A stretch of DNA of 64,000 nucleotides from Escherichia phage P896 (OL451225.1); one strand, 5' to 3'; numbered from the stretch's first letter, positions 1,190-49,877 are shown. A program made the numbers and translations. The notes: generated by a model from the sequence alone, not told the origin.

Positions 1190-1245
1190 TTGTAATCAGT
1201 AGTTGATGGAACAATCATACGGCAATCCTTTGCCGTTGTAAACAC
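1190..1245 (-). promoter_or_regulatory. sigma70-type early promoter cassette (minus-strand -35 GTTTACA, 17-bp spacer, -10 TATGAT) with CGGCAA/TTGCCG inverted repeat in the spacer
   Basis: Read directly on the minus strand upstream of the imm-like start; same architecture recurs across the window. Confidence 0.5.
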
Positions 1246-3960
1246 TTAAAAATCAAACATATCAAAAAGAGTTGCTTTCTTTTCGTAATCAACCTTTGCA
1301 GCTTCGGAGAAACCTGTTAATGGCTTAACAAAAGTCTTCTGGAACAGTGTGTTGTAGTCCATCCACTGCAGAACCTGGTCACGGATTTCAATCGGGAGTT
1401 CAATCCCAGATGGCCATGCAATCACGGTTTCACCAAACGGGTTGCCGACTTTGAGCGGAAGTACATACACCTTTTCCCCTTCCATGATTTGCGGAACAGT
1501 CTTCAGACCTTTAGTTGCACGCATATATGCAAGCACACCTTTGATATGAGCCGGACACTTAAATCCAGGGAAACCGCCTTCATTATATTTCTGGATGTTG
1601 TTAACCGATGATACACCTGCGATGGTCATGTAGTTAAGCTCATTAAATTCCTTATTGAATTCCTTGAAGTATGTCTGCAGAGATTCTTCACCTTCTTGCA
1701 GCATACGGCGGATACATTCTTTCAGAGCTTTCTGACATGCCTTTGGAGTACTCGACTTTTGAGTTTCCAGACCCATGATTTTCAGTTTCGGAACAGCATA
1801 TCGTGTGCCTTCCATATCGTACACGTTCAACGCATAACGCTTCTTCGCTGTCCAGAATCCACCAACACCCTTCGAACCCAGTGGAGGACATGCAATCGCC
1901 TCACGGTCCATAAACATAAGGTGCTGTTTGTTGTTCATGTATTCAGCCAGCTCACGGAAAGCTTTATCGATTGCCGGTTCCAGACGGTCTTTCGCAAACT
2001 TGTCCATGAAGTCAACCAGGTGGTTTGTATCGCGGAATTTAGATTCACCACCAACCTTTTTAATCAGGTTATCGCACTGGATATAAATGGAGTCAGTGTC
2101 ACCATAGAATACGTAGGTTTCGCCGCTTGTCCCACAGACACTATCGAAGTATTCGTTAACTTTACGCTCAATCCACTGCAATGCAAGTTGTCCGAAAGAT
2201 GTAATCGCGGTTGCATTTCGCAGGTCAAAGTAACGGAACCATATATTGCCCAGAGCGCCATAACAACTGTTGATAAGCAGTTTACGGTTAATCTGTGCGG
2301 TCATGCCTGCAACTTCTTCCATCTGCGCTTTGTACAGCATACCATTTAGGACTGTTTGATTCAGACCATGCAGGGCCGTTTTCATATTGTCATCAAAGTC
2401 ATGACGATAATCAACTTCAGGCTCGGTTGTACCAGTTCCTGGATTACGCAGAGCTTCCTTAATCAGTTCACCATTACGTTGAGCCGCAAGCATATAGCCT
2501 TTGTGTTCTTTACGCTGATTAAACACCTTGGTGACTTCTGTCGGAATAATACCCGCAACATCTTTAAAATACATCATACCATTTGGAGCACAACTAAATG
2601 TATCAGATGGACGGTCAGCAGTTCCTGCAATGTATTCGTACATCGGCGCTGGCGCAAATGACCCGGCAATCGTTTCTGGACTGATGTTAATCTGTCGGAT
2701 AATGCTTGGATACAGAGATGTTAAGTCACAGCTCATTACATATTTGTATGCGTTCGGAATCGGTTCCTTAACAAATGCACCAGGGAACGATTGGCGAACA
2801 TGTGATTTGGTTTCCGGAATGACTTTGTTTTGAGTCTTCAGGCTGTTAAAGATAATCGCATCCCAAGTTTTGATTGGGCTGAATACAGACTGAATCTGCA
2901 TTTTTGCATAATAACCCATTGACTGGCTCAGGTTAATAAACTGCCGCTTACGGTCAATCTGCACAACACGATAAACGTCGATGATGTTATAAGAAATATA
3001 CCGCTGGTGATTTGATTCACGCAGTTTAGAAATCGGGCCATCATACGGGAGTTTACCAACACCCAGTTCAGATTCCGCAACATAATCCAACGAATAAGAC
3101 GGTTGGTTTGTGAAGCTGAACTTTTTATACAGGTCCAGATAATCCAGAACAGAGATACCCAGAATCTGAATGATTTCTTGTTCTTCACCAAAGCCGTTGT
3201 TAATGACTTTAACTTTTGTACGACGATGTGGGCTCAGACGTTTTGCCGTAGCTTCACCAAATACATTTTTAAGGCGGTTGTAGATATATGGAATATCAAA
3301 CTTCTCGATGTTCCAACCAGTTAACATAACCGGAGTTTTCTCGTTCCAGAATACCAAATACTGCTGGAGCATTTCTTCTTCTGAATCGAAAGCCATATAA
3401 ACAATTTTTTCCAGGATTTCTTCCGGGACTTCATCACCACCATCTTCCTGCAGCTTAGCAGCAATATCAATAGACCATTGCTCCACAGTGGCGTATGGTG
3501 AGCCCAAAAGGTCAAAGACATAGAATTTATCGTCTACCGAATCATAGTGCGTCAGGGCGTCAATAGGGTGACGTGCTTCAGACGGCTCAGGGAACCCATC
3601 AGGAGATGTCACCTCGATATCGAAGTTAGCCACACGGATTTTACTTGAATCGTATTTGATTTCGTGCGGGTAACGGTCGGACAAGTATGCGAGTTTAAAG
3701 TCGTCCATGCCCATGGCTTCGAGGCCCATGTCATTCATTCGCTTCATCCACTGGGATGCATCACGCATGGAATCGAATTCTTTTTTCACACAACCTTTAT
3801 TATAGATGTCTGTATACTTTGCAGCTTGGTCTTCACGGGCGTGCATAAACAAGCATGGAGCATAAGGGATTTCACGAACACGTTCATGACCATTCTTGTC
3901 AATATATCGTTCGTGTAGGTTGTCACCGATTTGTTCGATAGTTAAATAAAATTCTTGCAT
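1246..3960 (-). CDS. 43: DNA polymerase (family B), gp43
   Basis: 904-aa ORF with N-terminus MQEFYLTIEQIGDNLHERYID close to recalled T4 gp43; exonuclease and polymerase motifs (YGDTDS) present; ATG start with AAGGAAA RBS. Confidence 0.97.
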   Translation of the reverse strand: MQEFYLTIEQIGDNLHERYIDKNGHERVREIPYAPCLFMHAREDQAAKYTDIYNKGCVKKEFDSMRDASQWMKRMNDMGLEAMGMDDFKLAYLSDRYPHEIKYDSSKIRVANFDIEVTSPDGFPEPSEARHPIDALTHYDSVDDKFYVFDLLGSPYATVEQWSIDIAAKLQEDGGDEVPEEILEKIVYMAFDSEEEMLQQYLVFWNEKTPVMLTGWNIEKFDIPYIYNRLKNVFGEATAKRLSPHRRTKVKVINNGFGEEQEIIQILGISVLDYLDLYKKFSFTNQPSYSLDYVAESELGVGKLPYDGPISKLRESNHQRYISYNIIDVYRVVQIDRKRQFINLSQSMGYYAKMQIQSVFSPIKTWDAIIFNSLKTQNKVIPETKSHVRQSFPGAFVKEPIPNAYKYVMSCDLTSLYPSIIRQINISPETIAGSFAPAPMYEYIAGTADRPSDTFSCAPNGMMYFKDVAGIIPTEVTKVFNQRKEHKGYMLAAQRNGELIKEALRNPGTGTTEPEVDYRHDFDDNMKTALHGLNQTVLNGMLYKAQMEEVAGMTAQINRKLLINSCYGALGNIWFRYFDLRNATAITSFGQLALQWIERKVNEYFDSVCGTSGETYVFYGDTDSIYIQCDNLIKKVGGESKFRDTNHLVDFMDKFAKDRLEPAIDKAFRELAEYMNNKQHLMFMDREAIACPPLGSKGVGGFWTAKKRYALNVYDMEGTRYAVPKLKIMGLETQKSSTPKACQKALKECIRRMLQEGEESLQTYFKEFNKEFNELNYMTIAGVSSVNNIQKYNEGGFPGFKCPAHIKGVLAYMRATKGLKTVPQIMEGEKVYVLPLKVGNPFGETVIAWPSGIELPIEIRDQVLQWMDYNTLFQKTFVKPLTGFSEAAKVDYEKKATLFDMFDF

Positions 3961-4010
3961 TTGGTTTCCTTTATAGTCGAGTGATTGACTTTTGTTTTAT
4001 GACTTGACGC

Positions 4011-4031
4011 TATTATACTACAAAAGGGACC
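4011..4031 (-). terminator. stem-loop GGGAC-UUCG-GUCCC followed by U-rich tract, between regA and gene 43
   Basis: Hairpin with tetraloop and TTTTG run read on the minus strand; about 50 nt upstream of the gene 43 RBS. Confidence 0.5.
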
Positions 4032-4050
4032 GAAGTCCCTTTGCTTTAAA

Positions 4051-4419
4051 TCAATTACCAATTGTATATTTGGCTACGAGCTTCCAGTCGTCTTTTTGTT
4101 TGAAGGAGATAACACGGAAGTTATTTGTTACTGCGAACAATTCATTATGCTCTTCTTCTTTGATAGCGATTAAGCCCCAGTCTTCAAGCAGTTGAGCAAT
4201 GGAATCACGGCGCTGATAGTCTTCGCCATCAATATCCACCTGACGACCATCCATGCGCAGCATTTCTTTGAAGTGAACAATATAATAACGACCTTGCTTT
4301 TGGAGGATGTGGCAGCTCTGGTACAGCACACGGTCTTTATTATTTGCGATGCCCATACGGGTCAGAGTTTCTTTAACTTTCAGGAAGTCTTCAGGTTGCT
4401 TTAATGTAATTTCAATCAT
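4051..4419 (-). CDS. regA: RegA translational repressor of early genes
   Basis: 122 aa, same length and position (between 62 and 43) as T4 RegA. Confidence 0.85.
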   Translation of the reverse strand: MIEITLKQPEDFLKVKETLTRMGIANNKDRVLYQSCHILQKQGRYYIVHFKEMLRMDGRQVDIDGEDYQRRDSIAQLLEDWGLIAIKEEEHNELFAVTNNFRVISFKQKDDWKLVAKYTIGN

Positions 4420-4420: not shown

Positions 4421-4999
4421 TTACCATTCCAATATTTGTTTTTTAATTTCTTTTTGTTCTTTCACATTACTGGTAACGGTCTTTAAGAATTCATCCGTTA
4501 CCAGACCTTTTGTCTTTTTCAAAACATCTTTAAGACTACCTTTGACTTTCAATGTTTCCATATACATCAAAGCATCATCTGCATTAATTGTATAATATTT
4601 CATTAAAAGCTTGAGCACAAGCTGAACGCTGACTACATCCGGTTCAGACTTGGCCCATTTGCCATAACGCTTGCCTTGCGGAACCGCATGCAGCAAATAA
4701 TTATAATGCTGCTGGTCTGTTAACCCGGAACCGATTAAGTTCATCACGTTCACCTGCATGATGCAATCAACATGTTGACTCAATGCGTTATCCAGCCAGA
4801 ATTTATTGTAGTTTTCCGATTGAATCAGGTTCCGTGGTTTTTTGCTAACGGTTATGTCGTTAAGAATCGCGAACAATTCATTTTCTGCTTTCTCTTTGTA
4901 TGAATCGGACAATTCCTGAATTTTGTTAAAGTCGCGTGATTTCCACGCAACCTCATGTTCGTTTAATTGAACGTCATCATCAAAGAGACTTACAGCCAT
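4421..4999 (-). CDS. 62: clamp loader small subunit gp62
   Basis: 192 aa; N-terminus and synteny with gp44 match T4 gp62. Confidence 0.88.
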   Translation of the reverse strand: MAVSLFDDDVQLNEHEVAWKSRDFNKIQELSDSYKEKAENELFAILNDITVSKKPRNLIQSENYNKFWLDNALSQHVDCIMQVNVMNLIGSGLTDQQHYNYLLHAVPQGKRYGKWAKSEPDVVSVQLVLKLLMKYYTINADDALMYMETLKVKGSLKDVLKKTKGLVTDEFLKTVTSNVKEQKEIKKQILEW

Positions 5000-13204: not shown

Positions 13205-13239
13205 GATATATTCCTCAGTCTCATTAAATTAAAATTTTA

Positions 13240-13276
13240 TTATCCTGGGGTCATTATACCATGACCCCGTTGGTTT
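13240..13276 (-). promoter_or_regulatory. stem-loop GGGGTCAT/ATGACCCC with a TATAAT hexamer in the loop (promoter-cassette-like; no clear -35)
   Basis: Inverted repeat and hexamer read on the minus strand; function uncertain. Confidence 0.3.
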
Positions 13277-14164: not shown

Positions 14165-14343
14165 AATTTAGGTCCTTTTGCAACTGTATTGAACAAGCTA
14201 CGGTCACACACCATCAACGGAGCATCAGGCCATTTCAAAGGACGATACCATACATCTTGGTCCGTCACTTTGGTTACTTGCACAGGATAGCCATTTACTG
14301 AATAATACTGGTCGGCTTTAATTTCTTTATCTTCAATAACCAT
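14161..14343 (-). CDS. hypothetical protein, 60 aa
   Basis: ORF 14161..14421 trimmed to ATG at 14343 (GAGGAAAAC RBS); the removed N-terminal residues are translation of the promoter cassette. Confidence 0.4.
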   Translation of the reverse strand: MVIEDKEIKADQYYSVNGYPVQVTKVTDQDVWYRPLKWPDAPLMVCDRSLFNTVAKGPKL

Positions 14344-14350
14344 TTTGTTT

Positions 14351-14410
14351 TCCTCATCAGTAGTTGATGGGATAATGATACACCGTTCAAAGGGGCTTGT
14401 ACACCCCTTT
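14351..14410 (-). promoter_or_regulatory. early promoter cassette (-35 GTGTACA inside a GGGG/CCCC hairpin, -10 TATCAT, conserved leader ATTATCCCATCAACTACTGA)
   Basis: Read on the minus strand; member of the GATGGGATA class of repeats. Confidence 0.5.
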
Positions 14411-20622: not shown

Positions 20623-21608
20623 TTCAGCAGCTCCAGAGCTTGTTCCAGTTTATCCAGACGATTGGTTGATTCTTCCCAAAGTCGCTTGGCTTTAGTATAG
20701 TCTTCAGTTGCCTTTTTATTAACAGCAAGAGCTTTATTATACGCCATTTCCAGAGCAATAATTTCAGGCGCTTTTTGTTTCACTGGCTCATTGTTCAGAT
20801 TATCAATCAGGTCTTCAAGGGTGGTTTCTTGTGGTGCATTCATAATTTCCTCACTTTTCTTTTTATGGATTTCTGTAACAGTTGGTTGCTTTGCACATTT
20901 AACTTCGCGTAATGTCACCACAATTTTCCAACCTTTCCAACCATGAGTACTGGTGATAGGGTCTACTTTAATTTTTTCAACAGTGCGCATATAGTTAAGG
21001 GCACACACCAGCTGATGAGTAAGCGTACAGGCAACATCAAGATACTTTTTGACATTTTCTGGAGTAGCCACCGGCGTAAAGAACTCATGCTTAACTGTAA
21101 TAATTACCTGGTTTTCACCAGACTCTTTAACCTTTATCATGTGCTCAGCCAAATGGGAGATAGTGCGAAAATCACCGCCCATCAATTTTGTCGCTGATTT
21201 TATGATAGACATTTTATTATCTCTGAATTCACGAGCCCAGCAATGTGCGAATTCAGAAACAGTATAGCCTTGTTTATCAAGGTAGTATTTTTCAACATCG
21301 CCAAACCAATGATACCCAATTGTACCTTTACCGCGGTTGGATTCAACACCAAACTTATGAAGAAGGTCTTTATTAACCAGGTACGCCAGGACTCTGGAAC
21401 CTTTAAAAGTTTTCTTGATATCATCATTACCGGCACGACTCGCAATAGTTGCAATGTCTTTCTTGAAGCGACCAGATGCAACAATCGTCGAATCAATCTG
21501 ATTTAACCAATAATTGATAATTAAAAGGATAGCCGATTCGCCTGTCAATGGTTTTACTTTTGTGTCGATAGTTGCGTTAAAGGCCTGGATATATTCGTTA
21601 CGTGTCAT
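20619..21608 (-). CDS. hypothetical protein, 329 aa
   Basis: ORF track; ATG start; translationally coupled to the zinc-ribbon gene; no recognisable motif. Confidence 0.6.
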   Translation of the reverse strand: MTRNEYIQAFNATIDTKVKPLTGESAILLIINYWLNQIDSTIVASGRFKKDIATIASRAGNDDIKKTFKGSRVLAYLVNKDLLHKFGVESNRGKGTIGYHWFGDVEKYYLDKQGYTVSEFAHCWAREFRDNKMSIIKSATKLMGGDFRTISHLAEHMIKVKESGENQVIITVKHEFFTPVATPENVKKYLDVACTLTHQLVCALNYMRTVEKIKVDPITSTHGWKGWKIVVTLREVKCAKQPTVTEIHKKKSEEIMNAPQETTLEDLIDNLNNEPVKQKAPEIIALEMAYNKALAVNKKATEDYTKAKRLWEESTNRLDKLEQALELLK

Positions 21609-21629
21609 AGTGTTCTCCTCATAAAGTAG

Positions 21630-21670
21630 GAATTCATTATACTCCCTCCATCCTTGGAAGTAAACATTAT
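21630..21670 (-). promoter_or_regulatory. early promoter (-35 GTTTAC, 18-bp spacer, -10 TATAAT)
   Basis: Hexamers read on the minus strand just upstream of the 329-aa gene. Confidence 0.55.
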
Positions 21671-24201: not shown

Positions 24202-24211
24202 TTTATTCTCC

Positions 24212-24268
24212 AGTATTTGGTAACTCAGTATGGGAACATTATACGTCTATCCCCATACTATGTACACA
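24212..24268 (-). promoter_or_regulatory. early promoter cassette, CAGTATGG class (inverted repeat AGTATGGG/CCCATACT around the -10)
   Basis: Repeat read directly; upstream of gene 23677..24201. Confidence 0.5.
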
Positions 24269-24785: not shown

Positions 24786-24794
24786 TTTATTCTC

Positions 24795-24860
24795 CGTTTG
24801 TTTATTTGGTAACTCAGTATGGAATCATTATGCCTCATGACCATCTGGTTGTACATTACT
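24795..24860 (-). promoter_or_regulatory. early promoter cassette, CAGTATGG class
   Basis: Conserved TTGGTAACTCAGTATGGAATCATTATGC block on the plus strand; follows the terminator of the nucleotidyltransferase gene. Confidence 0.5.
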
Positions 24861-24892: not shown

Positions 24893-24898
24893 TAGAAT

Positions 24899-27927: not shown

Positions 27928-28130
27928 TATTCCACCACATATGATAATGAGAAAATTGCTGATGAAAGATGGGTAGCATCTTCTTCACACAGTTCAAATG
28001 GAGCTTTCTGTAAGAGTTCAACCACTTCTTCATCAGTGACACTGTCCATAAAGATTGCATAATCATTAAGATAGATAACAACCTCATCACCAGTATTAAC
28101 TGCATCAATCTTGATATTTTTAATTCTCAT
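27927..28130 (-). CDS. hypothetical acidic protein, 67 aa
   Basis: ORF track; ATG start. Confidence 0.45.
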   Translation of the reverse strand: MRIKNIKIDAVNTGDEVVIYLNDYAIFMDSVTDEEVVELLQKAPFELCEEDATHLSSAIFSLSYVVE

Positions 28131-28140
28131 TGTGTTCTCC

Positions 28141-28195
28141 TCAGTAGTTGATGGGATAATAGTACACCCTTTTTATGGTGATGTAAACCCCTAAA
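28141..28195 (-). promoter_or_regulatory. early promoter cassette (-35 GTTTACA, 17-bp spacer, -10 TACTAT, leader ATTATCCCATCAACTACTGAGGAGA)
   Basis: Read on the minus strand upstream of gene 27927..28130. Confidence 0.55.
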
Positions 28196-28202
28196 TGAAA
28201 AA

Positions 28203-28228
28203 AGGTCCACCCGAAGGCAGACCTTTTG
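28203..28228 (-). terminator. hairpin with UUCG loop followed by UUUUUUCAUUU
   Basis: Imperfect 8-bp stem (two G-U pairs) plus T-run directly after the stop of gene 28231..28614. Confidence 0.5.
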
Positions 28229-29834: not shown

Positions 29835-30020
29835 TTATTCTGTAATACTTTCCAGATAATTTTCTAAATCGTCTGAAGCCTTATTAAGGGCTTCTAGCGC
29901 TTTATAATAGTCTTCACGGGAGTAATATTCTGTATGAAGTTCTTCGTCGTATTCGCTTTTAGCATCAACAACAGTTTCAATCATATCCAGAATTTTATTT
30001 TTCTGTTCTTTAGTAATCAT
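29835..30020 (-). CDS. hypothetical acidic protein, 61 aa
   Basis: ORF track. Confidence 0.4.
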   Translation of the reverse strand: MITKEQKNKILDMIETVVDAKSEYDEELHTEYYSREDYYKALEALNKASDDLENYLESITE

Positions 30021-30028
30021 AATATACC

Positions 30029-31988: not shown

Positions 31989-32447
31989 TTAGATATAAAT
32001 CACTTTTGTGCTAATTTTTCCTTCCAGACGATTAGAGTTAACAAACGCCATACGACAACACATGGTCGGAGACTTCCCAGGAAGAGCTGGGTTAACTGTC
32101 ATTCCTAACCATAGGTTCTTGTCTGTGATTTCCAGACGAAGTGGACGATAGTTCACATTCGGGTCAATTTGTGCTTCAACTTCCGGGAGTGGTTTCATCT
32201 CCAGGAATTCAACGATTTCTTTTACATGTGGTGTGATTTTTCCAAACAAATCAAAAACATATTGTTCATCAATTTCACGTTGGATTGCACGGTCCAACAG
32301 GTGTGGACTGTACTTAATGAAGAATGCCTCAAGGCCTGCTTCTTTACAAGCCTTGTTGATAGCATTATTAATTTTGAGGAACTCCGTTTCAAAAATGCGA
32401 CGAAGTTTATTGCGGCGAATGTAAACACTTGAATCGATAGTAGTCAT
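31989..32447 (-). CDS. regB: RegB site-specific endoribonuclease (by synteny, length and recalled sequence)
   Basis: ORF 31989..32504 trimmed to ATG at 32447 (AAAGGAGATAATC RBS) gives 152 aa, about the recalled T4 RegB length; lies between the SLT-like gene and the vs-like genes. Confidence 0.5.
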   Translation of the reverse strand: MTTIDSSVYIRRNKLRRIFETEFLKINNAINKACKEAGLEAFFIKYSPHLLDRAIQREIDEQYVFDLFGKITPHVKEIVEFLEMKPLPEVEAQIDPNVNYRPLRLEITDKNLWLGMTVNPALPGKSPTMCCRMAFVNSNRLEGKISTKVIYI

Positions 32448-32503
32448 GATTATCTCCTTTTGTTTGATGGGATAATCATAACTCATTTCAATCTGCTTGT
32501 ACA
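32448..32503 (-). promoter_or_regulatory. early promoter cassette, GATGGGATA class
   Basis: Conserved GTTTGATGGGATAATCATA block plus GTACA -35-like element upstream of regB. Confidence 0.45.
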
Positions 32504-34278: not shown

Positions 34279-34578
34279 TTAGAAAGAACCAGAACCTTTA
34301 ATTGTGTTCTGGCGACCTTTATTTTCCAATTCAGAATGGTCAATTTCATATGCTTGTGCCACGCCAAAAGCCTTTTTAACTTTAGCTAAAGAACCTTTAG
34401 ATGTAACAATATTAAAAGTATTACCTTTGGTAAAATCAACCAAATCCACTTGTACACCTTGTTTACCGAGGCTTGCGACAATAGCATCAACATATTGTTG
34501 GTCTAAATTGCCCTGGACTCCAATTTGGAATGCTTTAGGAGCTTTGGCTTCAGTAATAAATTCTTGATAAGTTTTCAT
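34279..34578 (-). CDS. internal-protein-like head protein with N-terminal capsid-targeting-like sequence MKTYQEFITE
   Basis: 99 aa starting MKTYQEFITEA; matches the recalled T4 internal protein targeting sequence (MKTYQEFIAE). Confidence 0.6.
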   Translation of the reverse strand: MKTYQEFITEAKAPKAFQIGVQGNLDQQYVDAIVASLGKQGVQVDLVDFTKGNTFNIVTSKGSLAKVKKAFGVAQAYEIDHSELENKGRQNTIKGSGSF

Positions 34579-34632
34579 TTTATTCTCTCTAAGTTGATGG
34601 GATAATTATGCACTATCCCATCAAAAAGTAAA
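34579..34632 (-). promoter_or_regulatory. early promoter cassette (-35 GTTTAC, 17-bp spacer, -10 CATAAT bracketed by GATGGGATA/TATCCCATC)
   Basis: Read on the minus strand upstream of the internal-protein-like gene. Confidence 0.55.
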
Positions 34633-34635: not shown

Positions 34636-34899
34636 TTATGCTTTACCGCCAGAAACAATACCAAAGGTCTCAAAGTCCCATTCAATATCGTCAACATCAA
34701 CTTTCTTACCAGCAACCACGAATGCGATTTCGCGACGTTTTGCATAGGTGACAATTTCTTTACCATCGCCGCCAAAGAAAGAATAACCATTGCGCTTCAT
34801 GGTGCCAAAGTCTTCAGCATCACCAGCGAATGCGCGGACTTTAAAGGAACCAGCAGGAGCTTTGGCAGATTCAGTAATAAATTCTTGATAAGTTTTCAT
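34636..34899 (-). CDS. internal-protein-like head protein (MKTYQEFITE start)
   Basis: ORF 34636..34938 trimmed to the internal ATG that yields MKTYQEFITESAKAP; 87 aa. Confidence 0.55.
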   Translation of the reverse strand: MKTYQEFITESAKAPAGSFKVRAFAGDAEDFGTMKRNGYSFFGGDGKEIVTYAKRREIAFVVAGKKVDVDDIEWDFETFGIVSGGKA

Positions 34900-34947
34900 T
34901 TTATATTCCATTGTTTGGTTGATAAAATCATTATACAACCTTTTTAG

Positions 34948-35364
34948 TTAAGCGTACACAGCTTTCCCATAGTATTTGTACCAGGTAGGCTTTTGAGAAA
35001 TTTTCTCATTCAGTCTGGCTTGACTGATTTCAATTGACCAGATTGATGGTTGATAATCATTCTTCCATTCATCAGGAATATCATTTAAATCTTGGGTAGA
35101 AATATCTTTTATGTTAAACCCTCGCTTTAAACATTCCGCAATAAGTTCTTGATGACGGTTTTTAAGGAACAAAAGCTTATCATAAAAGAAGGTGACATGA
35201 CCAGTCCCTAAAAGAAAAGATGATGGGATTTTAAAGTCAGAAACCTTTTTACCATTTTGCACATGCTTACGAACAGCACCAAACACGCGAGGAAGTTCAC
35301 GATATTCGGCCATAAGATGTTGGTCAGCAAGTTCAGATACCAGGGTCAAATTAATGCGAGTCAT
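34948..35364 (-). CDS. denV: endonuclease V (pyrimidine dimer DNA glycosylase) DenV
   Basis: Trimmed to [31 protein letters not shown]..., near-identical to recalled T4 DenV; 138 aa as in T4. Confidence 0.92.
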
Positions 35365-35423
35365 GTTTGTTCTCCTATGTTTGTAGGAGAACATTATATC
35401 ACACGTATCGTGGAAGTAAACTG
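35365..35423 (-). promoter_or_regulatory. promoter-like element with -10 TATAAT followed by hairpin GTTCTCCTA/TAGGAGAAC that contains the denV RBS
   Basis: Read on the minus strand. Confidence 0.4.
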
Positions 35424-35726
35424 TTATTTACCTTTAATTGCTTTAGCTGCTTCGATAGCCGCTTGCTGAAGGTCATCCATAGACATGCCGAACTTAGAAG
35501 CAAAGTTATCAATTTTCTTTTCGACAGAATTCAAAGGCTTGGCCTGTTTACCTTCGTTAGCGCCAGGGAGAGCTAGAATACGCTCTTTGTCAATATAAAG
35601 GCTTACAAGTTTCTTACGGTCTTTATCTGGTAAATCATGAAATGAATGGGCCTTTTTATTTACAGCGGCTTCTAATTTACCTGCACTTACGCGCGCTTCG
35701 GTGATAAATTCTTTATACGTTTTCAT
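35424..35726 (-). CDS. internal-protein-like head protein ([10 protein letters not shown] start)
   Basis: 100 aa; N-terminal capsid-targeting-like sequence; between denV and e, where T4 has ipII/ipIII. Confidence 0.6.
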
Positions 35727-36226: not shown

Positions 36227-36252
36227 AATACCCCCTTATATAGGGGTATTTA

Positions 36253-38211: not shown

Positions 38212-38448
38212 TCAGTATTCTTCATCATATTCAAAGTCTTCATCAAACTCGGGTTCCAGAGAAATTTCTTCTTCCGGGTGGAATTCACAAGGGAAGTATT
38301 CCACTTCACCACAATCGGCGTCATAGGACTGGAAATCAATTTGGATTACGGTTTCGGATACAACAATAACTTCAGCAACCAAGTCACCTGCAATTTCCAT
38401 TCCAACTTTAACATCTTTAGCTTTGATAGTATTCATTTTATTCTCCAA
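38212..38448 (-). CDS. hypothetical strongly acidic protein, 78 aa
   Basis: ORF track; C-terminal EEEISLEPEFDEDFEYDEEY. Confidence 0.5.
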   Translation of the reverse strand: MENKMNTIKAKDVKVGMEIAGDLVAEVIVVSETVIQIDFQSYDADCGEVEYFPCEFHPEEEISLEPEFDEDFEYDEEY

Positions 38449-38449
38449 T

Positions 38450-38502
38450 TTGGTAACTCAGTATGGAATCATTATGCACTGACTCCATACTGATGTACAC
38501 AC
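38450..38502 (-). promoter_or_regulatory. early promoter cassette (-35 GTGTACA, 17-bp spacer, -10 CATAAT, inverted repeat CAGTATGGA/TCCATACTG bracketing the -10)
   Basis: Read on the minus strand; clearest copy of the CAGTATGG class. Confidence 0.6.
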
Positions 38503-39653: not shown

Positions 39654-39854
39654 TCAAATAATACCGTATGCGTAAATATCTCTTTTAATGCAGGAAACTA
39701 CTTCTTCCAGAGAATCACAAACACGTTCTGTGACGCCTGCGTAATCACCACTGATGGTTACTTTAATGCCATCAGAAACTTCCTGGAGATTAACCTCCAG
39801 TTGGTTGACTTTGGCTTCGTTCAGAACTTTGATTAATTCGTTTGCGATAGACAT
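39654..39854 (-). CDS. hypothetical protein, 66 aa
   Basis: ORF track. Confidence 0.45.
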   Translation of the reverse strand: MSIANELIKVLNEAKVNQLEVNLQEVSDGIKVTISGDYAGVTERVCDSLEEVVSCIKRDIYAYGII

Positions 39855-39918
39855 TTTTATTCTCCTGTTCTGATAACGTGATTGTCATCAGTTGATAGGA
39901 GTATAGTAACACAGTTTT

Positions 39919-40263
39919 TTAGACTTGTATACTGCTTCTACAATATTCTAAAAATAATTTATCGTTGTCTACCGTATCCCAACGACGCCAAGATGGATTC
40001 CAGACCAGAGCGTTGTCACCGCAATCATTGAGCTTAAAATGGTCGTAGTACATAGCTATATGTCTGGTTTCGTCACCAGAGAACCCCAGTATAGGCTCAC
40101 CGTGAGTATGATACATATGATGATGCATTGAGAGGTCGCATTTGTAAAACATCTCACGTTTACCACGAACGAACAAGAAGGCTTGCCCATTCATATAGAA
40201 TTCTTTATCTGTTTTCAAAAGATATTTGAATACCGAATCTTTATGCATAATTCCTCCTACCAC
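39919..40263 (-). CDS. hypothetical His-rich protein, 114 aa
   Basis: ORF track; MHHHMYHTHGE segment. Confidence 0.5.
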   Translation of the reverse strand: MVGGIMHKDSVFKYLLKTDKEFYMNGQAFLFVRGKREMFYKCDLSMHHHMYHTHGEPILGFSGDETRHIAMYYDHFKLNDCGDNALVWNPSWRRWDTVDNDKLFLEYCRSSIQV

Positions 40264-43011: not shown

Positions 43012-43036
43012 TTAGGGGGCAAAGCCCCCTTTTATC

Positions 43037-43630
43037 TTACTTAAGTGAATTGATGTATTCTTCAATGTCAGCGGACGTGGTATCCACACCAACCTGTGGA
43101 CCTTTGAAGGTTTCAACACGCATCAGAGTGTCTTCAATATCAATCTTGGTCAATGCAGCGATTTCAACAACATCATCTGCGGTTGCAATACCTAGGGCAG
43201 ACACCTTACGGGTTTCGCGGATGTATTCCAGTTTAACAGCTAGTTCCTGACGAGAGTCATCCAGCTCTTTAACTTTCAATTTAATTTCATTACGCATTTC
43301 AACATAATCATCTGCCTTCTTACGAAGTTGTTTAGCAGTGCGACGATACAGGAGACCCAGTTTAGCATGGACCTGGACATCAGCACCATCAGCAATCAGT
43401 TTTCGGATTTCACGCTCTTTTGAAGCGGCAAGCTGGTCTTTTTCATTCGCTAACTCGCGGATGCGTTTTTCTTCATTAACAGACTTAACATGGGCAGTCT
43501 GGAGCTCAGTAATCTTATCAATCAGGGTAGAAGCTGCTTTAGTATACTGGTCTTCAATAGACAGGTTTTGCGCCATTGCAGTACCCAGTTTGGAGCGGAT
43601 GAATTCAACAATTTTCTTTAAAGTATTCAT
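43037..43630 (-). CDS. coiled-coil protein, 197 aa (PspA-like architecture, low confidence)
   Basis: ORF track; long heptad-rich helices; similarity to PspA is architectural only. Confidence 0.5.
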
Positions 43631-43660
43631 GGTATTTCCTTCAGATGGTTAAAGTTTTAT

Positions 43661-43705
43661 TATCCAGGGAACATACTATCATGTTCCCAGAGGTATGTAA
43701 ACATT
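43661..43705 (-). promoter_or_regulatory. early promoter (-35 GTTTACA) with GGGAACAT/ATGTTCCC inverted repeat around a TAGTAT -10
   Basis: Read on the minus strand upstream of the coiled-coil gene. Confidence 0.45.
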
Positions 43706-44104
43706 TTATTTCATTTTTGCGAGGCAGATTTCATTGGCTTCCCATTGAGCTTGCTTAATAATAGCTTTGGATACAGGAACCTTTTGACCATAAGTTTTTG
43801 ACGTTGAGAGAACAATATATTTGTTTGCCTCATTATGCCAACCCCATGATTTTTCACCATGAGTACCTTTAACTACAGCTGACACCTCAACAGAACAACC
43901 ATCAGCGCCAATCTTGGTATCAACAATCCATTCATTTCGCTTAATTGCTTCTTCCAATGCTGCCGCTTCCGCCATCCAGTGCGTTTCAGGGTCTATTTGT
44001 TCAATCTCACGAGTTAACGCAGCTCCCAGGTCTTTTGCATATTTTTGTTGCTCTGGGGTTAATGAGTCATATAACTTTTTCATTTCTTTATCTTCAATAT
44101 TCAT
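43706..44104 (-). CDS. hypothetical protein, 132 aa
   Basis: ORF 43706..44134 trimmed to ATG at 44104 (GAGGAAAAT RBS); a GGGGC-GAAA-GCCCC hairpin lies just upstream of the RBS. Confidence 0.5.
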   Translation of the reverse strand: MNIEDKEMKKLYDSLTPEQQKYAKDLGAALTREIEQIDPETHWMAEAAALEEAIKRNEWIVDTKIGADGCSVEVSAVVKGTHGEKSWGWHNEANKYIVLSTSKTYGQKVPVSKAIIKQAQWEANEICLAKMK

Positions 44105-44138: not shown

Positions 44139-44444
44139 TTAGATTTTGTTTTCCTGCACACCATAATAAAGTTCATCAGACACAATATCCAGGATGCGGC
44201 GAACATATTCATCATGGTATTGGCAGTCAAAATCAAATGCAACAGTAGTTTCCGCTTCACGAGTGAATTTAACTTGCACATTCAGGTGATTAACAACGTT
44301 AGTTAATTTATCAGTAAAGAACTCTTTTGCTACCGCCTGTTGGACTTGCACTTTGAACTTGGTGTTACGAATCATATTTTCAGCAGATGCGAAATTACCA
44401 GTTTTATCAAAGTCAACAAGCGCCAGGTTGATGATGAATTTCAT
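44139..44444 (-). CDS. hypothetical protein, 101 aa
   Basis: ORF track; ATG with GGAGAATAAA RBS. Confidence 0.5.
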   Translation of the reverse strand: MKFIINLALVDFDKTGNFASAENMIRNTKFKVQVQQAVAKEFFTDKLTNVVNHLNVQVKFTREAETTVAFDFDCQYHDEYVRRILDIVSDELYYGVQENKI

Positions 44445-44525
44445 TTTATTCTCCAGTGTTTTATTTGGTAACTCAGTATGGAATCATTATGCCTTAAAGC
44501 AGGGGGCTTGTATACCCCTTTTTAA
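44445..44525 (-). promoter_or_regulatory. early promoter cassette, CAGTATGG class, with GGGG/CCCC hairpin over the -35
   Basis: Conserved TTATTTGGTAACTCAGTATGGAATCATTATGC block. Confidence 0.5.
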
Positions 44526-44969
44526 TTAAATTTCAAATTCTTTGCGGAAGTTGGAAGCATAAGACTGAACTGATGCTTTGTTGAATCCAAACTCACGCAC
44601 AATCATATCAATAACAGCTCTGCGAGCAGCACCATTAGACATATTAACAGTTTTGAACATATCATAGCATAAATCTTTGTTGCTCATACCGGAGCGTTTA
44701 GGTGCCTTACGTTCAGCTTTTGGTTCAGCTTTAGGAGTAGGTTTAACTTCTGGTTTAACCTGTCCATCATTCAGACCTTTAAAAATTTTACCTGCCAGAG
44801 TTGCCAGTTTAGCAGCTTCGCCACGAGTGATACCAAATACTGCCGGGTTAAATGAAATACCTTCAGCTGTCAGACGTTTGAAGAACATACGTGCTGCGGA
44901 TTGTGCTTCAGCTTCAGAAGAGTTGTTTAATGCCAGTTTAACATACTTAACCAGTTTTGAAGTTTTCAT
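44526..44969 (-). CDS. hypothetical two-domain protein, 147 aa (Pro/Lys-rich linker)
   Basis: ORF track; C-terminal 35 aa (NGAARRAVIDMIVREFGFNKASVQSYASNFRKEF) shared with gene 45422..45847. Confidence 0.5.
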   Translation of the reverse strand: MKTSKLVKYVKLALNNSSEAEAQSAARMFFKRLTAEGISFNPAVFGITRGEAAKLATLAGKIFKGLNDGQVKPEVKPTPKAEPKAERKAPKRSGMSNKDLCYDMFKTVNMSNGAARRAVIDMIVREFGFNKASVQSYASNFRKEFEI

Positions 44970-45042
44970 TTTATTATCCCGTTTGTTTATTTGTTAACTC
45001 AGTATGGAATCATTATGCCTTAGTTAAATTCCAAAGTACATA
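44970..45042 (-). promoter_or_regulatory. early promoter cassette, CAGTATGG class
   Basis: Conserved GTTAACTCAGTATGGAATCATTATGC block upstream of gene 44526..44969. Confidence 0.45.
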
Positions 45043-45339
45043 TTAATTTTCAGAAGTTGGGAAATAAACTTCAAAGTCATACATGTTTACTACTGCAGAC
45101 GCGATTGCTTGGTACTGCATACCCAAGAAAGTTTTCTTGTTCTTACGCCACAAGTTAACCATTTCTGTTTTGATGCATGCCAGGGAGTAGTTGGATGCAG
45201 GATACTGTTTGATGATTGCAACAACTTCTTCAGAAGCAGTTTCGCACAATTCATTCAGTTGAGCTTCAATTTTAGCAGAAATGATTGCTTTGTTTTCTTC
45301 TTGAGCTTGGGTAGCGTGCCATGCAGGTGCGTTGAACAT
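45043..45339 (-). CDS. hypothetical protein, 98 aa
   Basis: ORF track; ATG with GGAGAATAAA RBS. Confidence 0.5.
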   Translation of the reverse strand: MFNAPAWHATQAQEENKAIISAKIEAQLNELCETASEEVVAIIKQYPASNYSLACIKTEMVNLWRKNKKTFLGMQYQAIASAVVNMYDFEVYFPTSEN

Positions 45340-45421
45340 TTTATTCTCCAGTGTTTTATTTGTTAACTCAGTATGGGATAATTATACACTATCCCACCTG
45401 GAAGTAAAACACTTTTCTCAA
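45340..45421 (-). promoter_or_regulatory. early promoter cassette (-10 TATAAT bracketed by ATGGGATA/TATCCCAC)
   Basis: Read on the minus strand. Confidence 0.5.
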
Positions 45422-45847
45422 TTATTTTTGAGCTTTGCGGAAGTTGGATGCATATGACTGAACAACAGTCTTTTTGATATCATGGGTGGTAACCAGAACA
45501 TCAATCAGAGCGCGACGAGCTGCATTATCATTCATATCAATTTCTGCAAATGCCTGGAAGCAAATGTCACGAGCGTTACCAGATTTGGACTGGATTTTTT
45601 CTTCTTTAACTTCTTCAATTGGGAATTCAATCATTTCAGCTTGGATTAATTCAATGATAGATTCTTTTGACTGTTTGGTGTTTACCTTCAGTTCAGAATT
45701 AAGGGACTTGGCGATGGCAACAATCTGGGTTGAAGTCAGATGAATAAGTGCATCTTCACGAATGCAGATTTCACATACTTCGTCAGCAACCATTTTGTTA
45801 GTGATGCGGGTAACAGAGAATGCAGAGGTCAGGGTCAGGAAGTTCAT
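45422..45847 (-). CDS. hypothetical protein, 141 aa, paralogous C-terminal domain
   Basis: ORF track; C-terminal NDNAARRALIDVLV...VVQSYASNFRK shared with gene 44526..44969. Confidence 0.5.
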   Translation of the reverse strand: MNFLTLTSAFSVTRITNKMVADEVCEICIREDALIHLTSTQIVAIAKSLNSELKVNTKQSKESIIELIQAEMIEFPIEEVKEEKIQSKSGNARDICFQAFAEIDMNDNAARRALIDVLVTTHDIKKTVVQSYASNFRKAQK

Positions 45848-45945
45848 TTTATTTCTCCAAAGTTTTGTTTTGATTCAGTGTGTAACTCAGTATGGAATCA
45901 TTATGCACCCGGTCAATCCGGATGTACACTACTTTTTGAAGAAAA
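45848..45945 (-). promoter_or_regulatory. early promoter cassette (-35 GTGTACA, 17-bp spacer with CCGG inverted repeat, -10 CATAAT, CAGTATGG leader)
   Basis: Read on the minus strand. Confidence 0.5.
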
Positions 45946-46908: not shown

Positions 46909-46985
46909 TGGTCGGGGTGGTGGGATTCTAACCCACAACCTACGGTTTAGAAGACCGTTGCTCTATACAATTAAGCTACACCCCG
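46909..46985 (-). tRNA. tRNA-Arg (anticodon UCU), CCA encoded
   Basis: Minus strand folds as a cloverleaf: acceptor CGGGGUG/CACCCCG, anticodon loop CUUCUAA, T-loop GGUUAGAAUCC, 3' ACCA. Confidence 0.75.
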
Positions 46986-47061
46986 GGTGGCCCCATCCGG
47001 ACTTGAACCGGAAACCTGCCAGTTATGAGCCGGATGCTCTAACCAATTGAGCTACAGGGCC
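46986..47061 (-). tRNA. tRNA with CAU anticodon (Ile2-type or Met), directly abutting tRNA-Arg
   Basis: GGCCCUGUAGCUCAAUUGGUUAGAGC D-arm, anticodon loop CUCAUAA, T-arm UCCGGUUCAAGUCCGGA; acceptor has two G-U pairs and the anticodon stem one mismatch. Confidence 0.6.
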
Positions 47062-47934: not shown

Positions 47935-47936
47935 AA

Positions 47937-48317: not shown

Positions 48318-48318
48318 T

Positions 48319-48504
48319 TTACTCACCTTTAGAGATTTTATCCATAACGAAAGAGATTGAACCAATTAAAAATGCAACTACTAAAGAGATTATATTCTCA
48401 GAAGTTGAAAGCATATTCAACATAAAGCCAGCAAACATGCTAAAACCAAAAGCGGTAACAGCAACAAAGGCAGTAACATTTCTAATTAATTCGCAACGTT
48501 TCAT
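48319..48504 (-). CDS. small membrane protein, 61 aa
   Basis: ORF 48319..48537 trimmed to ATG at 48504 (GAGGAGAATAAA RBS); the removed residues MIIPSTTEENK are translation of the promoter cassette. Confidence 0.45.
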   Translation of the reverse strand: MKRCELIRNVTAFVAVTAFGFSMFAGFMLNMLSTSENIISLVVAFLIGSISFVMDKISKGE

Positions 48505-48561
48505 TTTATTCTCCTCAGTAGTTGATGGGATAATCATACTACAGTTATCCCATCACGTACA
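48505..48561 (-). promoter_or_regulatory. early promoter cassette, GATGGGATA class (inverted repeat GATGGGATAA/TTATCCCATC)
   Basis: Read directly. Confidence 0.5.
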
Positions 48562-48840
48562 CTAAATTTTTGTATATTGTCCAGCTTTAACTTTTTTCAG
48601 TTCACGAGGGCTTACCGCGTAAGTGAATGGAGCATTCCAGGAAGAACTGACTTTGTAACCTTTAGTCAACATCATTGCTGAAACTTTCTTGTTATCAGGA
48701 CCGTTTTCGCCTTTAACAAGAAACAACTCAAATGCGCCCCCATCAACCGGTTTGGCCTTAACCATCAGATGTCCTTTCAGGTCTTCCAGCATATCCGGGT
48801 GACTAATTGATTCGTTAATAAATTCTTGATAAGTTTTCAT
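48562..48840 (-). CDS. internal-protein-like head protein (MKTYQEFINE start)
   Basis: 92 aa with N-terminal capsid-targeting-like sequence. Confidence 0.55.
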   Translation of the reverse strand: MKTYQEFINESISHPDMLEDLKGHLMVKAKPVDGGAFELFLVKGENGPDNKKVSAMMLTKGYKVSSSWNAPFTYAVSPRELKKVKAGQYTKI

Positions 48841-48895
48841 TAGTAGCTCCAGTAGTTGATGGGATAATTATACTGCAACTATCCCATCGTGTACA
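48841..48895 (-). promoter_or_regulatory. early promoter cassette (-35 GTACAC, 16-bp spacer, -10 TATAAT bracketed by GATGGGATA/TATCCCATC)
   Basis: Read on the minus strand. Confidence 0.55.
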
Positions 48896-49195: not shown

Positions 49196-49203
49196 TTGAA
49201 ATC

Positions 49204-49476
49204 CTATTTTAGATAAATTGCATATTTTTTATAACCAGCTGTCTCATGACGGAGACCCTTGTCATTGGCAAAACGCTCAATGTTATTAATTTGGTTCTGG
49301 TCAAGTTCTGAAATGTCAAACGCGAAAAAGTTGCGTTTGTTACCAATTGTTATATGGTCAGTCAAGTCAATGCTATACAGGTGATTGATATTGTCAATCA
49401 TAGCTTTGACTGCTTTACTAATTTTTACTTCTTCATTCAGTTGGGACTCGTTGAAAAGTTCATTGAAAGTTTTCAT
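49204..49476 (-). CDS. internal-protein-like protein (MKTFNELFNE start)
   Basis: 90 aa; divergent targeting-like N-terminus. Confidence 0.5.
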   Translation of the reverse strand: MKTFNELFNESQLNEEVKISKAVKAMIDNINHLYSIDLTDHITIGNKRNFFAFDISELDQNQINNIERFANDKGLRHETAGYKKYAIYLK

Positions 49477-49484
49477 AAGAAACC

Positions 49485-49817
49485 TTATTTATATAGTTTT
49501 GCCAGTTCTTTACGTCCGCGAGCAGACATAATAAATTGTTCATCGCCAATTTTAAAATAAGCCATACCACCGTCAACAGCGATACCAATTTCTTTAGTAC
49601 CTTCTTTGCCTTTCCACTTGCCACCAGATTTCAGAACAGCTTCAACTGCAGCTTTGGAATATTTGGACGTTTGAAAACGTTCATTACCAATCTGAAAGAA
49701 AACACCATCTGCATTTTTGGTTAAACCAAATTTCAGAGAGCCTTCACTATCATCAATTGATTTGGTCTCATTGATGGCGGATTCGGCTAAAAACTCGTTG
49801 TAAGTTTTGATGTTCAT
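49485..49817 (-). CDS. internal-protein-like protein (MNIKTYNEFLAE start)
   Basis: ORF 49485..49850 trimmed to ATG at 49817 with GGAG RBS; 110 aa. Confidence 0.5.
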   Translation of the reverse strand: MNIKTYNEFLAESAINETKSIDDSEGSLKFGLTKNADGVFFQIGNERFQTSKYSKAAVEAVLKSGGKWKGKEGTKEIGIAVDGGMAYFKIGDEQFIMSARGRKELAKLYK

Positions 49818-49877
49818 ATTAACTCCGTTTGTTCGTTGGTGTAGGAACATAATACTGCGCCTACACTCATTTGTACA
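49818..49877 (-). promoter_or_regulatory. early promoter (-35 GTGTACA, 17-bp spacer, -10 TATTAT inside GTGTAGG/CCTACAC inverted repeat)
   Basis: Read on the minus strand. Confidence 0.5.

Follow-up and report, generated by a model that had tools for sequence, protein, structure and literature searches.

Recurrent PeSL-like early-promoter cassettes in the T4-like Escherichia phage P896

In the T4-like bacteriophages RB49 and phi1, promoter early stem-loop (PeSL) cassettes run from an upstream stop codon in an AT-rich region, through −35 and −10 elements and a Shine-Dalgarno sequence, to the next start codon (Arbiol et al. 2010, PMC2839356). Their stem-loop may contain G-T pairs and takes one of five positions, most often between the −35 and −10 elements or overlapping the latter. 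One such stem-loop cut lacZ expression like a strong terminator, and the authors speculated that the structure is a possible target of recombination proteins, pointing to GGGC/GCCC repeats at T4 deletion end points (PMC2839356). PeSLs were subsequently extended to T4/PST and KVP40/nt-1 (Comeau et al. 2014, PMC4122927), and mini-circles produced by recombination between neighbouring copies are a further trait of these elements (PMC2839356, PMC4122927). Analysis of a 64,000-nucleotide (nt) stretch of Escherichia phage P896 (OL451225.1), hereafter the window, revealed 20 sigma-70-type early promoters on the minus strand within positions 1242-49877 and none on the plus strand. We consider that these elements are probably PeSL-type composite regulatory cassettes of a T4-like phage. 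A first-pass annotation, made from the sequence alone, had proposed a PeSL-like nature, and this main interpretation proved right, since every feature that defines PeSLs at the sequence level was found, including the layout and the positional subclasses of Arbiol et al. (PMC2839356).

The resemblance to the RB49/phi1 PeSLs extends from the upstream stop codon in an AT-rich stretch through to the start codon. It includes a stem-loop with G-T pairs that lies between −35 and −10, over −10, over −35 or upstream, the presence of many copies in hyperplastic regions with small open reading frames (ORFs) of unknown function behind them, and the location of some insertion, deletion and replacement junctions of close relatives inside a cassette. 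There are also differences. The window promoters are of the T4 early type, T[G/T]TACA, whereas those of RB49 carry a near-perfect TTGACA; the window stems are mostly not polyG/polyC, the spacer pairing with a C-rich discriminator; and the window has three long leader families (A, B and C), with a shared homology of 40-80 bp. In Comeau et al. (PMC4122927), the stem-loops of the T4/PST PeSLs are drawn upstream of the promoter, whereas in the window and in one Tequatrovirus many of them enclose the −10 element. An upstream-only definition, suggested by a figure legend in that paper, was rejected, as it is overturned by the five positions described in 2010 (PMC2839356).

The promoters also resemble the early promoters of T4 as reviewed in Hinton 2010 (PMC2988021) and compared between T4-like phages in Nolan et al. 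2006 (PMC1524935), with an A-rich UP element, a GT(T/G)TAC −35 element, 17-bp spacing, TAnnAT and C at −3 to −1. The T4 early promoters likewise lie 5′ of early genes and novel ORFs, while replication genes are served by MotA-box middle promoters. A C-rich −3 to −1 segment is visible in the early-promoter logos of RB69, RB49 and 44RR published by Nolan et al. (PMC1524935). In contrast to the T4 promoters described there, TGTACA, with G at the third −35 position, predominates in the window. The searched passages of both papers make no mention of an inverted repeat around the −10 element or of long conserved leaders.

The strict pattern T[GT]TAC-N17-19-YANNAT-NNN-YCC matched 14 times, always on the minus strand, against 0.27 expected (9 + 5 by parts, against 0.08 + 0.19). 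When a Shine-Dalgarno sequence, start codon and ORF were also demanded downstream, a promoter scan returned 22 candidates, again confined to the minus strand. Of these, 19 are intergenic, and the promoter at 34632, which lies outside the Shine-Dalgarno filter, was added to give the 20 sites, all of which have a Shine-Dalgarno sequence and an ORF downstream. The sites that passed a scan filtered for upstream composition have A/T at 9 or more of the 14 nt ahead of the promoter. The first-pass count of at least eighteen recurrent minus-strand sites was therefore borne out, but its −35 consensus, G(T/G)TTACA, had to be corrected: the element reads G-T-(G/T)-T-A-C-A, and the expression G[TG]T[TA]ACN caught only eight real sites. 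Both 9-mers highlighted in that annotation are enriched when up to one mismatch is allowed (27 vs 12.9 and 28 vs 14.7 expected). Direct-repeat families span the cassette sites, and no Rfam family matches fall on the cassettes.

Each cassette begins with an upstream stop codon in or beside an A/T-rich, UP-like stretch; at most sites the stop lies 0-12 nt ahead of the −35 element (e.g. TAG-TGTACA). The −35 hexamer is mostly TGTACA, then TTTACA or TATACA, with G or A just before it. A spacer of 16-18 bp separates it from the −10 element (TAnnAT or CATAAT), beyond which lie a C-rich discriminator (YCC, −3 to −1) and a leader of family A, B or C. Leaders are 20-46 nt long and end in GGAG/GAGG followed by ATG, so that the 3′ end of the cassette comprises a GGAG plus A-rich Shine-Dalgarno sequence (ribosome-binding site mostly GGAGAATAAAATG or GAGGAG) and the initiation codon of the small early gene that follows. 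Seventeen of the 20 cassettes are located within the hyperplastic region at 24-50 kb and none among the late genes past 50 kb. The expectation that small novel genes stand behind them held in that each of the ten downstream ORFs tested falls into a PHROG of unknown function, but not as a rule, since cassettes also precede conserved T4 orthologues (imm, regB, denV, e.6, nrdC.4, nrdC.8 and internal-protein genes). As anticipated, replication genes lack such cassettes and have MotA-box promoters instead, with TGCTTTA-type boxes at 10478, 12044 and 23613.

Two near-verbatim sequence classes had been noticed at first pass, and both were recovered. The class A leader, TCCATACTGAGTTACC, is present in seven copies (plus-strand coordinates 24226, 24815, 38459, 44474, 45000, 45369 and 45888), with TCCATACTGAGTTACCAAAT... 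following the −10 element through to GGAGAATAAAATG; some of these copies form a tandem array at 44.4-45.9 kb. The class B leader, TATCCCATCAACTAC, reading TATCCCATCAACTACTGAGGAG, occurs in 7-8 copies, at 1205 (degenerate), 14366, 28150, 32466, 34596, 48524 and 48858. Class C has two copies, at 43667-43688 (the e.6 cassette) and 13247-13268 (upstream of 55.2), whose stems differ by two base pairs, each changed on both sides (GGGAACAT/ATGTTCCC vs GGGGTCAT/ATGACCCC). A conserved box, GGATAATAAAA(C/T)TTTAA, lies 3′ of both class C stems on the minus strand (13229-13245 and 43649-43665).

An inverted repeat enclosing the −10 element was found at nine of the 20 early promoters. The claim that the −10 hexamer sits in the loop in each case was too broad, because the left arm is present at only 6 of the 14 class A/B sites (24227-24259, 38458-38493, 34594-34624, 48523-48555, 48858-48888 and 45372-45398). 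Other arm sequences surround the −10 element at 43667-43688, 49839-49866, 45005-45033 and 13247-13268. The repeats clearly exceed chance: a perfect complement of at least 6 nt linking the spacer to the 10 nt that follow the −10 element was detected at 8 of 19 promoters, whereas 2000 spacer shuffles averaged 0.49 and never exceeded 4, and cross-paired arms gave 5%. The window as a whole contains 48 perfect inverted repeats, compared with 20 ± 4 in simulated sequences. Folding of the segment from about −30 to +4 gave a mean z-score of −2.3 (p = 5e-4), with eight sites below −3.9 and the lowest at −6.6.

A stem-loop of some kind is present in about 15-16 of the 20 cassettes: 8-9 lie over the −10 element, three in the spacer (1242, 28187 and 45928), two around the −35 element (14403 and 44514), and two are upstream terminators, cassette 28187 having both a spacer hairpin and an upstream terminator. 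There is about one hairpin per junction, and the positions are mutually exclusive. As the upstream stop usually adjoins the −35 element, the spacer is nearly the sole free sequence in the junction. The stems enclosing the −10 element comprise 6-11 bp. Their arm sequences in the window are CAGTATGGA, GATGGGATA, GGGAACAT, GTGTAGG, TGGAAT and GGGGTCAT, while relatives carry GATAGGGT, which occurs as GATAGGGT-TATAATG-ACCCTATC ahead of denV in six of them, and GTGGGACC, which with GGTCCCAC lies ahead of the gene following the insertion found at 38.2-38.5 kb of the window. At least six unrelated arm families thus occupy the same position within one genus. The same design with unrelated arms was observed in Tequatrovirus (3 of 11), in Moonvirus (2 of 4) and in other T4-like sequences from IMG/VR.

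These comparisons were based on homologous segments of 50 kb from SP18, TH41, TH54, TH55, TH57 and TH22 and of about 25 kb from EAWsc9, MN01 and P8, on 50 kb each of JS10, Tequatrovirus LF73P3 and Moonvirus KM16, and on shorter T4-like loci (up to 20 kb) from IMG/VR. The IMG/VR matches comprised 13 exact class B and 8 regB loci. A metagenome scan with TAYNATNNNNNNATCAACTACKG was too loose, returning 120 mostly random loci, among which L112, an unrelated contig, was the sole genuine cassette. This class B-like element (~4500-4560) has a spacer hairpin, CCACA-agga-TGTGG, adjoining its −10 element.

The pattern of mismatches, like the varied arm sequences and loop lengths, favours a stem-loop over an operator for a dimeric protein. 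On the sense strand, G·U outnumbers A·C inside the arms by 10:2 for the outer arms and 49:10 overall, an excess that represents about 7-8 independent events versus 2. At one pair, the orthologues form a C-G / U·G / U-A series, and in two orthologue groups 95-98% of positions pair, versus 27-62% when the arms are slid. Because orthologues vary too little, pairing is supported by the comparison between arm families and not by classical covariation.

The repeats could equally, it had been suggested, be a binding site for a dimeric regulator. Such operators would consist of half-sites flanking the −10 element to which a regulator of phage or host origin binds, blocking RNA polymerase, for example during early shut-off. 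With arms at about −28 to −20 and −6 to +3, a bound dimer would indeed occlude the polymerase, two of the arm sequences recur at several promoters, and early shut-off persists without AsiA or ModA by a mechanism given as unknown in Hinton 2010 (PMC2988021). A common regulator is, however, difficult to reconcile with a genus that has six or more unrelated arm sequences, with the further ones of other genera, or with the absence of fixed spacing (loops of 6-17 nt, GG(G)-CC(C) core distance of about 12 to 22 bp in the window and relatives). Moreover, 8 of the 14 class A/B promoters have the right half-site only, other promoters have their hairpin in the spacer or around the −35 element, and the arm mismatches are mainly sense-strand G·T, which would be meaningless for a duplex operator. 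The varied arms and spacing, the single half-sites and the alternative hairpin positions thus disfavour a dimeric-regulator site, which we regard as very improbable.

It is also conceivable that the repeats have no function and are by-products of the copying of a few ancestral cassettes, together with quasi-palindrome correction by template switching in a neutral spacer. Few origins are suggested by the near-identity of the paralogous class A and B repeats, and the orthologues are nearly invariant, so purifying selection is not demonstrable. Yet the at least six arm families in this genus and those in Tequatrovirus, Moonvirus and the IMG/VR T4-like phages point to independent origins, always at the same place. 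The complementary hairpin positions, about one per junction, and the 8 of 19 repeats observed where 0.5 are expected also argue against neutrality, and we find this explanation extremely improbable.

In the nine repeat-bearing promoters the spacer supplies the 5′ arm and the discriminator/+1 box the 3′ arm, with the −10 element in the loop. We infer that transcription starts at the A following CCC, i.e. after the C-rich −3 to −1 segment, as this fits the published early-promoter logos. The cassette's own transcript would then begin inside the 3′ arm, without the 5′ arm and without most of the 3′ arm, so that only read-through RNA from upstream promoters would fold. We hypothesize that the hairpin may serve as a 3′ end element of the upstream unit, either an attenuator or a barrier to 3′ exonucleases; this is the likeliest role, in line with what was put forward, and in part tested, for the PeSL stem-loops of RB49, but it is a tentative proposal, possible though short of probable. 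The element may have been pushed into the promoter by compaction, because in such very compact junctions the spacer alone is unconstrained. In T4, the RegB/S1 nuclease prefers GGAG followed by an A-rich sequence (Uzan and Miller 2010, PMC3014915). The GGAG/A-rich ribosome-binding sites of the cassettes may be RegB targets as in T4, and a cut at GGAG would then place the stem close to the 3′ end so created.

Genes e, soc and I-TevI of T4 have a promoter inside a hairpin, an arrangement that exerts translational control (PMC3014915). As in these genes, transcripts from upstream would fold, and those from the internal promoter lack the 5′ arm. There, however, the ribosome-binding site itself forms the 3′ arm and the internal promoter is of the late or middle type, whereas in the window cassettes this arm is formed by the discriminator/+1 box, which lies 12-35 nt ahead of the Shine-Dalgarno sequence. 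By analogy, the window hairpins might control translation, the gene being translated only, or better, from its own promoter when read-through RNA is folded, or might insulate the Shine-Dalgarno sequence. The logic is established in T4 and is seen at three places in the window. Upstream of gene e (36227-36250, minus strand), a hairpin, AATACCCC-tatataag-GGGGTATT, directly precedes the ATG of the lysozyme gene and has a late-promoter-like TATATAAG in its loop, which is the known T4 gene e arrangement. The denV early promoter (35362-35420; TTTACT, 16-nt spacer, TATAAT) is followed directly after the −10 element by a 10-bp hairpin, TGTTCTCCTA/TAGGAGAACA (35368-35393, minus strand), that covers the Shine-Dalgarno sequence; we infer that the start site lies inside its 5′ arm, which would correspond to e/soc-type logic. 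In SP18, TH54, TH55, TH57 and TH22, denV has a different cassette, the GATAGGGT-TATAATG-ACCCTATC type. The class B cassette of regB (32445-32503) has no spacer-discriminator repeat; its −10 region, ATGATTATC, pairs with GATAATCAT overlapping the start codon (32446-32479, minus strand), identically in six related loci. Read-through RNA could here mask the AUG, while the promoter's own RNA, starting past the left arm, could not.

Predicted accessibility from the Shine-Dalgarno sequence to the AUG is indeed higher in the promoters' own transcripts (0.66) than in read-through RNA (0.50; p = 1e-4). Shuffling the spacer leaves the prediction unchanged: read-through accessibility is 0.50 with native and 0.49 with shuffled spacers (p = 0.99), and 0.51 against 0.48 in the inverted-repeat subset (p = 0.46). 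Occlusion or insulation of the Shine-Dalgarno sequence by the hairpin was accordingly ruled out by partition-function folding. With the 3′ arm of the class A, B and C repeats ending 12-35 nt upstream of that sequence, translational control by these repeats appears quite improbable. An "anti-anti-Shine-Dalgarno" role, in which the left arm neutralizes pairing of the discriminator with the Shine-Dalgarno sequence, was also rejected, as it fits class A (UUCCA vs UGGAG) but not class B.

Being nearly identical over 40-80 bp, the cassettes also act as portable homology for recombination, by which promoter halves and adjacent ORFs are swapped, as several junctions show. Breakpoints were derived from chained BLAST alignments with seven relatives, and replacement ends were located inside cassettes at 24222, 24850, 34583-34598, 34899, 38492, 43688, 45016 and 48571. 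Altogether, 13 of 88 breakpoints fall in cassettes (p = 4e-5 vs a uniform null, but not enriched over gene boundaries). Junctions occur exactly at the boundary between the −35 element and the spacer and ahead of the Shine-Dalgarno sequence. At 38.2-38.5 kb, a module composed of a spacer stem, −10 element, leader and ORF takes the place of a 37-nt spacer stem, −10 element and leader, with junctions exactly after TGTACAT and before GAGGAAAATAT. The e.6 stem, −10 element and leader (43667-43716) follow a MotA box, TGCTTTAA, in SP18, TH41, TH55 and TH57; TH22 has TGTACA there instead, and the window, TH54 and the IMG/VR isolate contig L003 have GTTTACA together with an extra 132-aa ORF (positions compared in relatives: L001 ~44279, L020 ~6598). 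Gene e.6 has thus apparently been switched between middle-type and early-type control by recombination. The idea that the cassettes drive gene shuffling is clear at individual junctions, but the sequences support it only weakly as a genome-wide driver: 10 of the 20 promoter junctions and 26-31 of 100 other junctions contain a breakpoint, a modest difference (Fisher p = 0.03-0.09).

Two junctions (38492/3 and 43688/9) lie precisely where a repeat ends on its outer side, and the repeats might instead act as DNA hairpins or cruciforms, in single-stranded DNA during replication or recombination or in supercoiled DNA, that serve as targets of structure-specific nucleases (endonuclease VII, gp46/47) and hence as recombination hot spots by which cassettes and their ORFs move. 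The speculation of the PeSL authors about recombination proteins and the GGGC/GCCC repeats at T4 deletion end points (PMC2839356) would agree with this, and G·T pairs are tolerated in DNA hairpins too. On the other hand, hairpins with 6-11 bp stems and 6-17 nt loops are poorly extruded from duplex DNA, the junctions can be accounted for just as well by crossover within the −35 and Shine-Dalgarno homology on either side, cassette junctions are only weakly enriched for breakpoints, and the strand bias of the wobble pairs follows the direction of transcription. We consider a role as DNA structure improbable.

Several observations weigh against the PeSL-type reading and its extension to RNA folding and recombination. 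The G·U excess could partly reflect the composition of the promoter consensus, and G·T is tolerated in single-stranded DNA. Pairing measures within the orthologue groups, which show almost no variation, never beat shuffle controls, and sense and antisense folding energies did not differ significantly in the window (p = 0.16). A consensus scan of the minus strand found none of the hairpins enclosing the −10 element to be terminator-like; they lack a U-tract, their tails being AACUACUG, UGAGUUAC or UGGAUAAU, so classical intrinsic termination by these stems is unlikely and was rejected as their function, whereas the upstream or −35 stems at 24874, 28200 and 14392 do have a U-tract. The breakpoints in cassettes show no excess over a gene-boundary null, and are at most modestly commoner at cassettes than at other gene junctions. 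Finally, many ORF insertions and deletions are located at promoter-free junctions, e.g. 29837-30028. At 29835-30020 (minus strand), a 61-aa ORF, absent in seven relatives, is set exactly between a stop codon and the next Shine-Dalgarno sequence, with no promoter cassette at either end.

A further reading takes the stem-loop enclosing the −10 element not merely for a displaced PeSL terminator but for a dedicated device, general to early and middle promoters of the Tevenvirinae, which would separate read-through from promoter-initiated RNA or act on the non-template DNA strand, for instance as a processing or decay entry site or as part of the early shut-off that operates without AsiA or ModA. 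This view derives from the unrelated arms in Gaprivervirus, Tequatrovirus and Moonvirus and from the silence of the searched T4 early-promoter passages on such a design. We consider it unlikely, and retain the PeSL-type cassette as the preferred interpretation.

The window belongs to a T4-like myovirus of the genus Gaprivervirus and shares 93-97% identity with Shigella phage SP18, a member of the same genus (97.4% over positions 1-25000); between 30 and 50 kb the matches to the SP18 group are broken into 8-14 mosaic pieces. Following the SP18 annotation, the minus strand carries, in order, uvsX, imm, 43, regA, 62/44/45, 46/47, 55, nrdH/G/D, 49, nrdC, mobD, tk, vs, regB, internal-protein genes, denV, e, e.6, tRNA genes, further internal-protein genes, 57B/57A and gene 1, while the plus strand past ~53 kb encodes late baseplate proteins. 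Just two tRNA genes, Arg(tct) and Met(cat), were identified at 46909-47061 (minus strand); the matching locus contains Arg, Asn and Met in SP18 and JS10, and Arg and Ile2(cat) in EAWsc9.

All cassettes described below lie on the minus strand. Among those with a repeat around the −10 element, the one at 49815-49877 (TGTACA, 17-nt spacer, TATTAT, leader, ACGGAG Shine-Dalgarno sequence, ATG) has the repeat GTGTAGG/CCTACAC (49839-49866; dG −12.6, z −4.2) and precedes a 110-aa ORF, itself ahead of 57B. The class B cassette at 48838-48895 contains a 9-bp repeat, GATGGGATA/TATCCCATC (48858-48888), around TATAAT (dG −16.8, z −6.6), and lies ahead of a 92-aa internal-protein-like ORF whose N-terminus reads MKTYQEFI. 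A second class B cassette, at 48502-48561, has an 11-bp repeat, TGATGGGATAA/TTATCCCATCA (48523-48555), around TATGAT (z −5.4) and a 61-aa ORF downstream, and a third, at 34576-34632, an 11-bp repeat, TTGATGGGATA/TATCCCATCAA (34594-34624), around CATAAT and a 99-aa internal-protein gene. The hybrid A/B cassette at 45337-45408 combines the repeat (G)TGGGATA/TATCCCA(T) (45372-45398) around TATAAT (z −4.5) with a class A leader after it and a 98-aa ORF.

The class A cassette at 44967-45040 has a weaker 6-bp repeat, TGGAAT/ATTCCA (45005-45033), around CATAAT, contains a replacement junction (45016-45022), and precedes a 147-aa ORF. Another, at 38434-38499, has a 10-bp repeat, TCAGTATGGA/TCCATACTGA (38458-38493), around CATAAT (z −5.7), and its body together with the 74-aa ORF downstream forms an insertion/replacement unit relative to TH41, TH54, TH55, TH57 and TH22. 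In the class A variant of nrdC.8 (24199-24266), an 8-9-bp repeat, AGTATGGG(G)/(T)CCCATACT (24227-24259), surrounds TATAAT (z −5.3). The class C cassette of e.6 (43628-43701) is composed of TTTACA and the repeat GGGAACAT/ATGTTCCC (43667-43688) around TAGTAT, followed by GGATAATAAAACTTTAA (z −3.9). Upstream of 55.2 (13247-13268), a related element that is not an early promoter has an extended −10 sequence, TGgTATAAT, with the repeat GGGGTCAT/ATGACCCC followed by GGATAATAAAATTTTAA.

Hairpins at other positions were found in further cassettes. The class A cassette at 45845-45928 has a spacer hairpin, CATCCGG-attga-CCGGGTG, that does not surround the −10 element, and a 141-aa ORF downstream. The degenerate class B cassette of imm (1171-1242) follows directly after the gene 43 stop codon and contains a spacer hairpin, CGGCAA-agga-TTGCCG (1220-1235; z −2.4), adjoining the −10 element. 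In the class B cassette of mobD.5 (28128-28227), a small spacer hairpin (CACC/GGTG) is accompanied, just upstream of the promoter, by a classical terminator, AAAAGGTC...GACCTTTT plus T-run (28200-28227). The −35 element lies in the loop of a hairpin in the class A cassette at 44442-44520 (TATACA; GGGG/CCCC, 44501-44520), which precedes a 101-aa ORF, and in the class B cassette of 55.6 (14341-14408; TGTACA; AAAAAGGGG/CCCCTTT). The class A cassette at 24783-24893, with a 68-aa ORF, has an upstream terminator hairpin, AAGGACCC-ttcg-GGGTCCTT plus T-run (24874-24893), and additional cassette and ORF units of relatives are inserted at 24869-24899. Folding revealed no significant hairpin in the promoter at 39852-39931 (TATACA, 17-nt spacer, TACTAT, degenerate class B box, 66-aa ORF) and none in that at 34897-34958 (degenerate class B box, 87-aa internal-protein gene). 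The nrdC.4 early promoter (21606-21664; TTTACT, 17-nt spacer, TATAAT) shows only weak pairing around the −10 element (z −2.1).

On the plus strand, GGGG/CCCC hairpins with T-runs at 43014-43030 and 44501-44520 are terminator-like for transcription antisense to the early genes. Under neighbouring class A cassettes, the minus-strand ORFs at 44526-44969 and 45422-45847 are paralogous and share a common C-terminal domain (phrog_18416/phrog_9997 cross-hit, DNA repeat D12).

Homology comprising a promoter and a capsid-targeting sequence has been described at T-even internal-protein loci (Repoila et al. 1994, as cited in PMC2839356). Similarly, four cassette genes of the window, situated in its two most mosaic segments (34.3-35.7 and 48.5-48.9 kb), encode MKTYQEFI..., although the description as cited there concerns internal-protein loci only, whereas the window cassettes are spread over about 50 kb. 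This N-terminus (repeat family D4) is shared by small minus-strand genes at 34279-34578, 34636-34899, 35424-35726 and 48562-48840 and is the capsid-targeting sequence of internal proteins; between relatives the gene bodies are swapped while promoter and N-terminus remain constant.

The feature is real and statistically solid, and it belongs to the already described PeSL kind. The results extend PeSL-type cassettes to the SP18/VR20 group (Gaprivervirus) and provide a catalogue of 20 promoters, three leader families and at least six stem families, adding as further detail the spacer-discriminator stems and the swapping of promoter halves as modules. As either a MotA box or a −35 element can be joined to the same −10 element, stem and leader, recombination can move a gene from early to middle control or the reverse. 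The results also sharpen the question of the role of stem-loops that overlap the −10 element, which are frequent in several T-even genera, are not classical terminators and, by prediction, have no effect on the accessibility of the ribosome-binding site. For the annotation and engineering of therapeutic T4-like phages, the cassettes mark the boundaries of transcription units and are likely to be sites that tolerate insertions.

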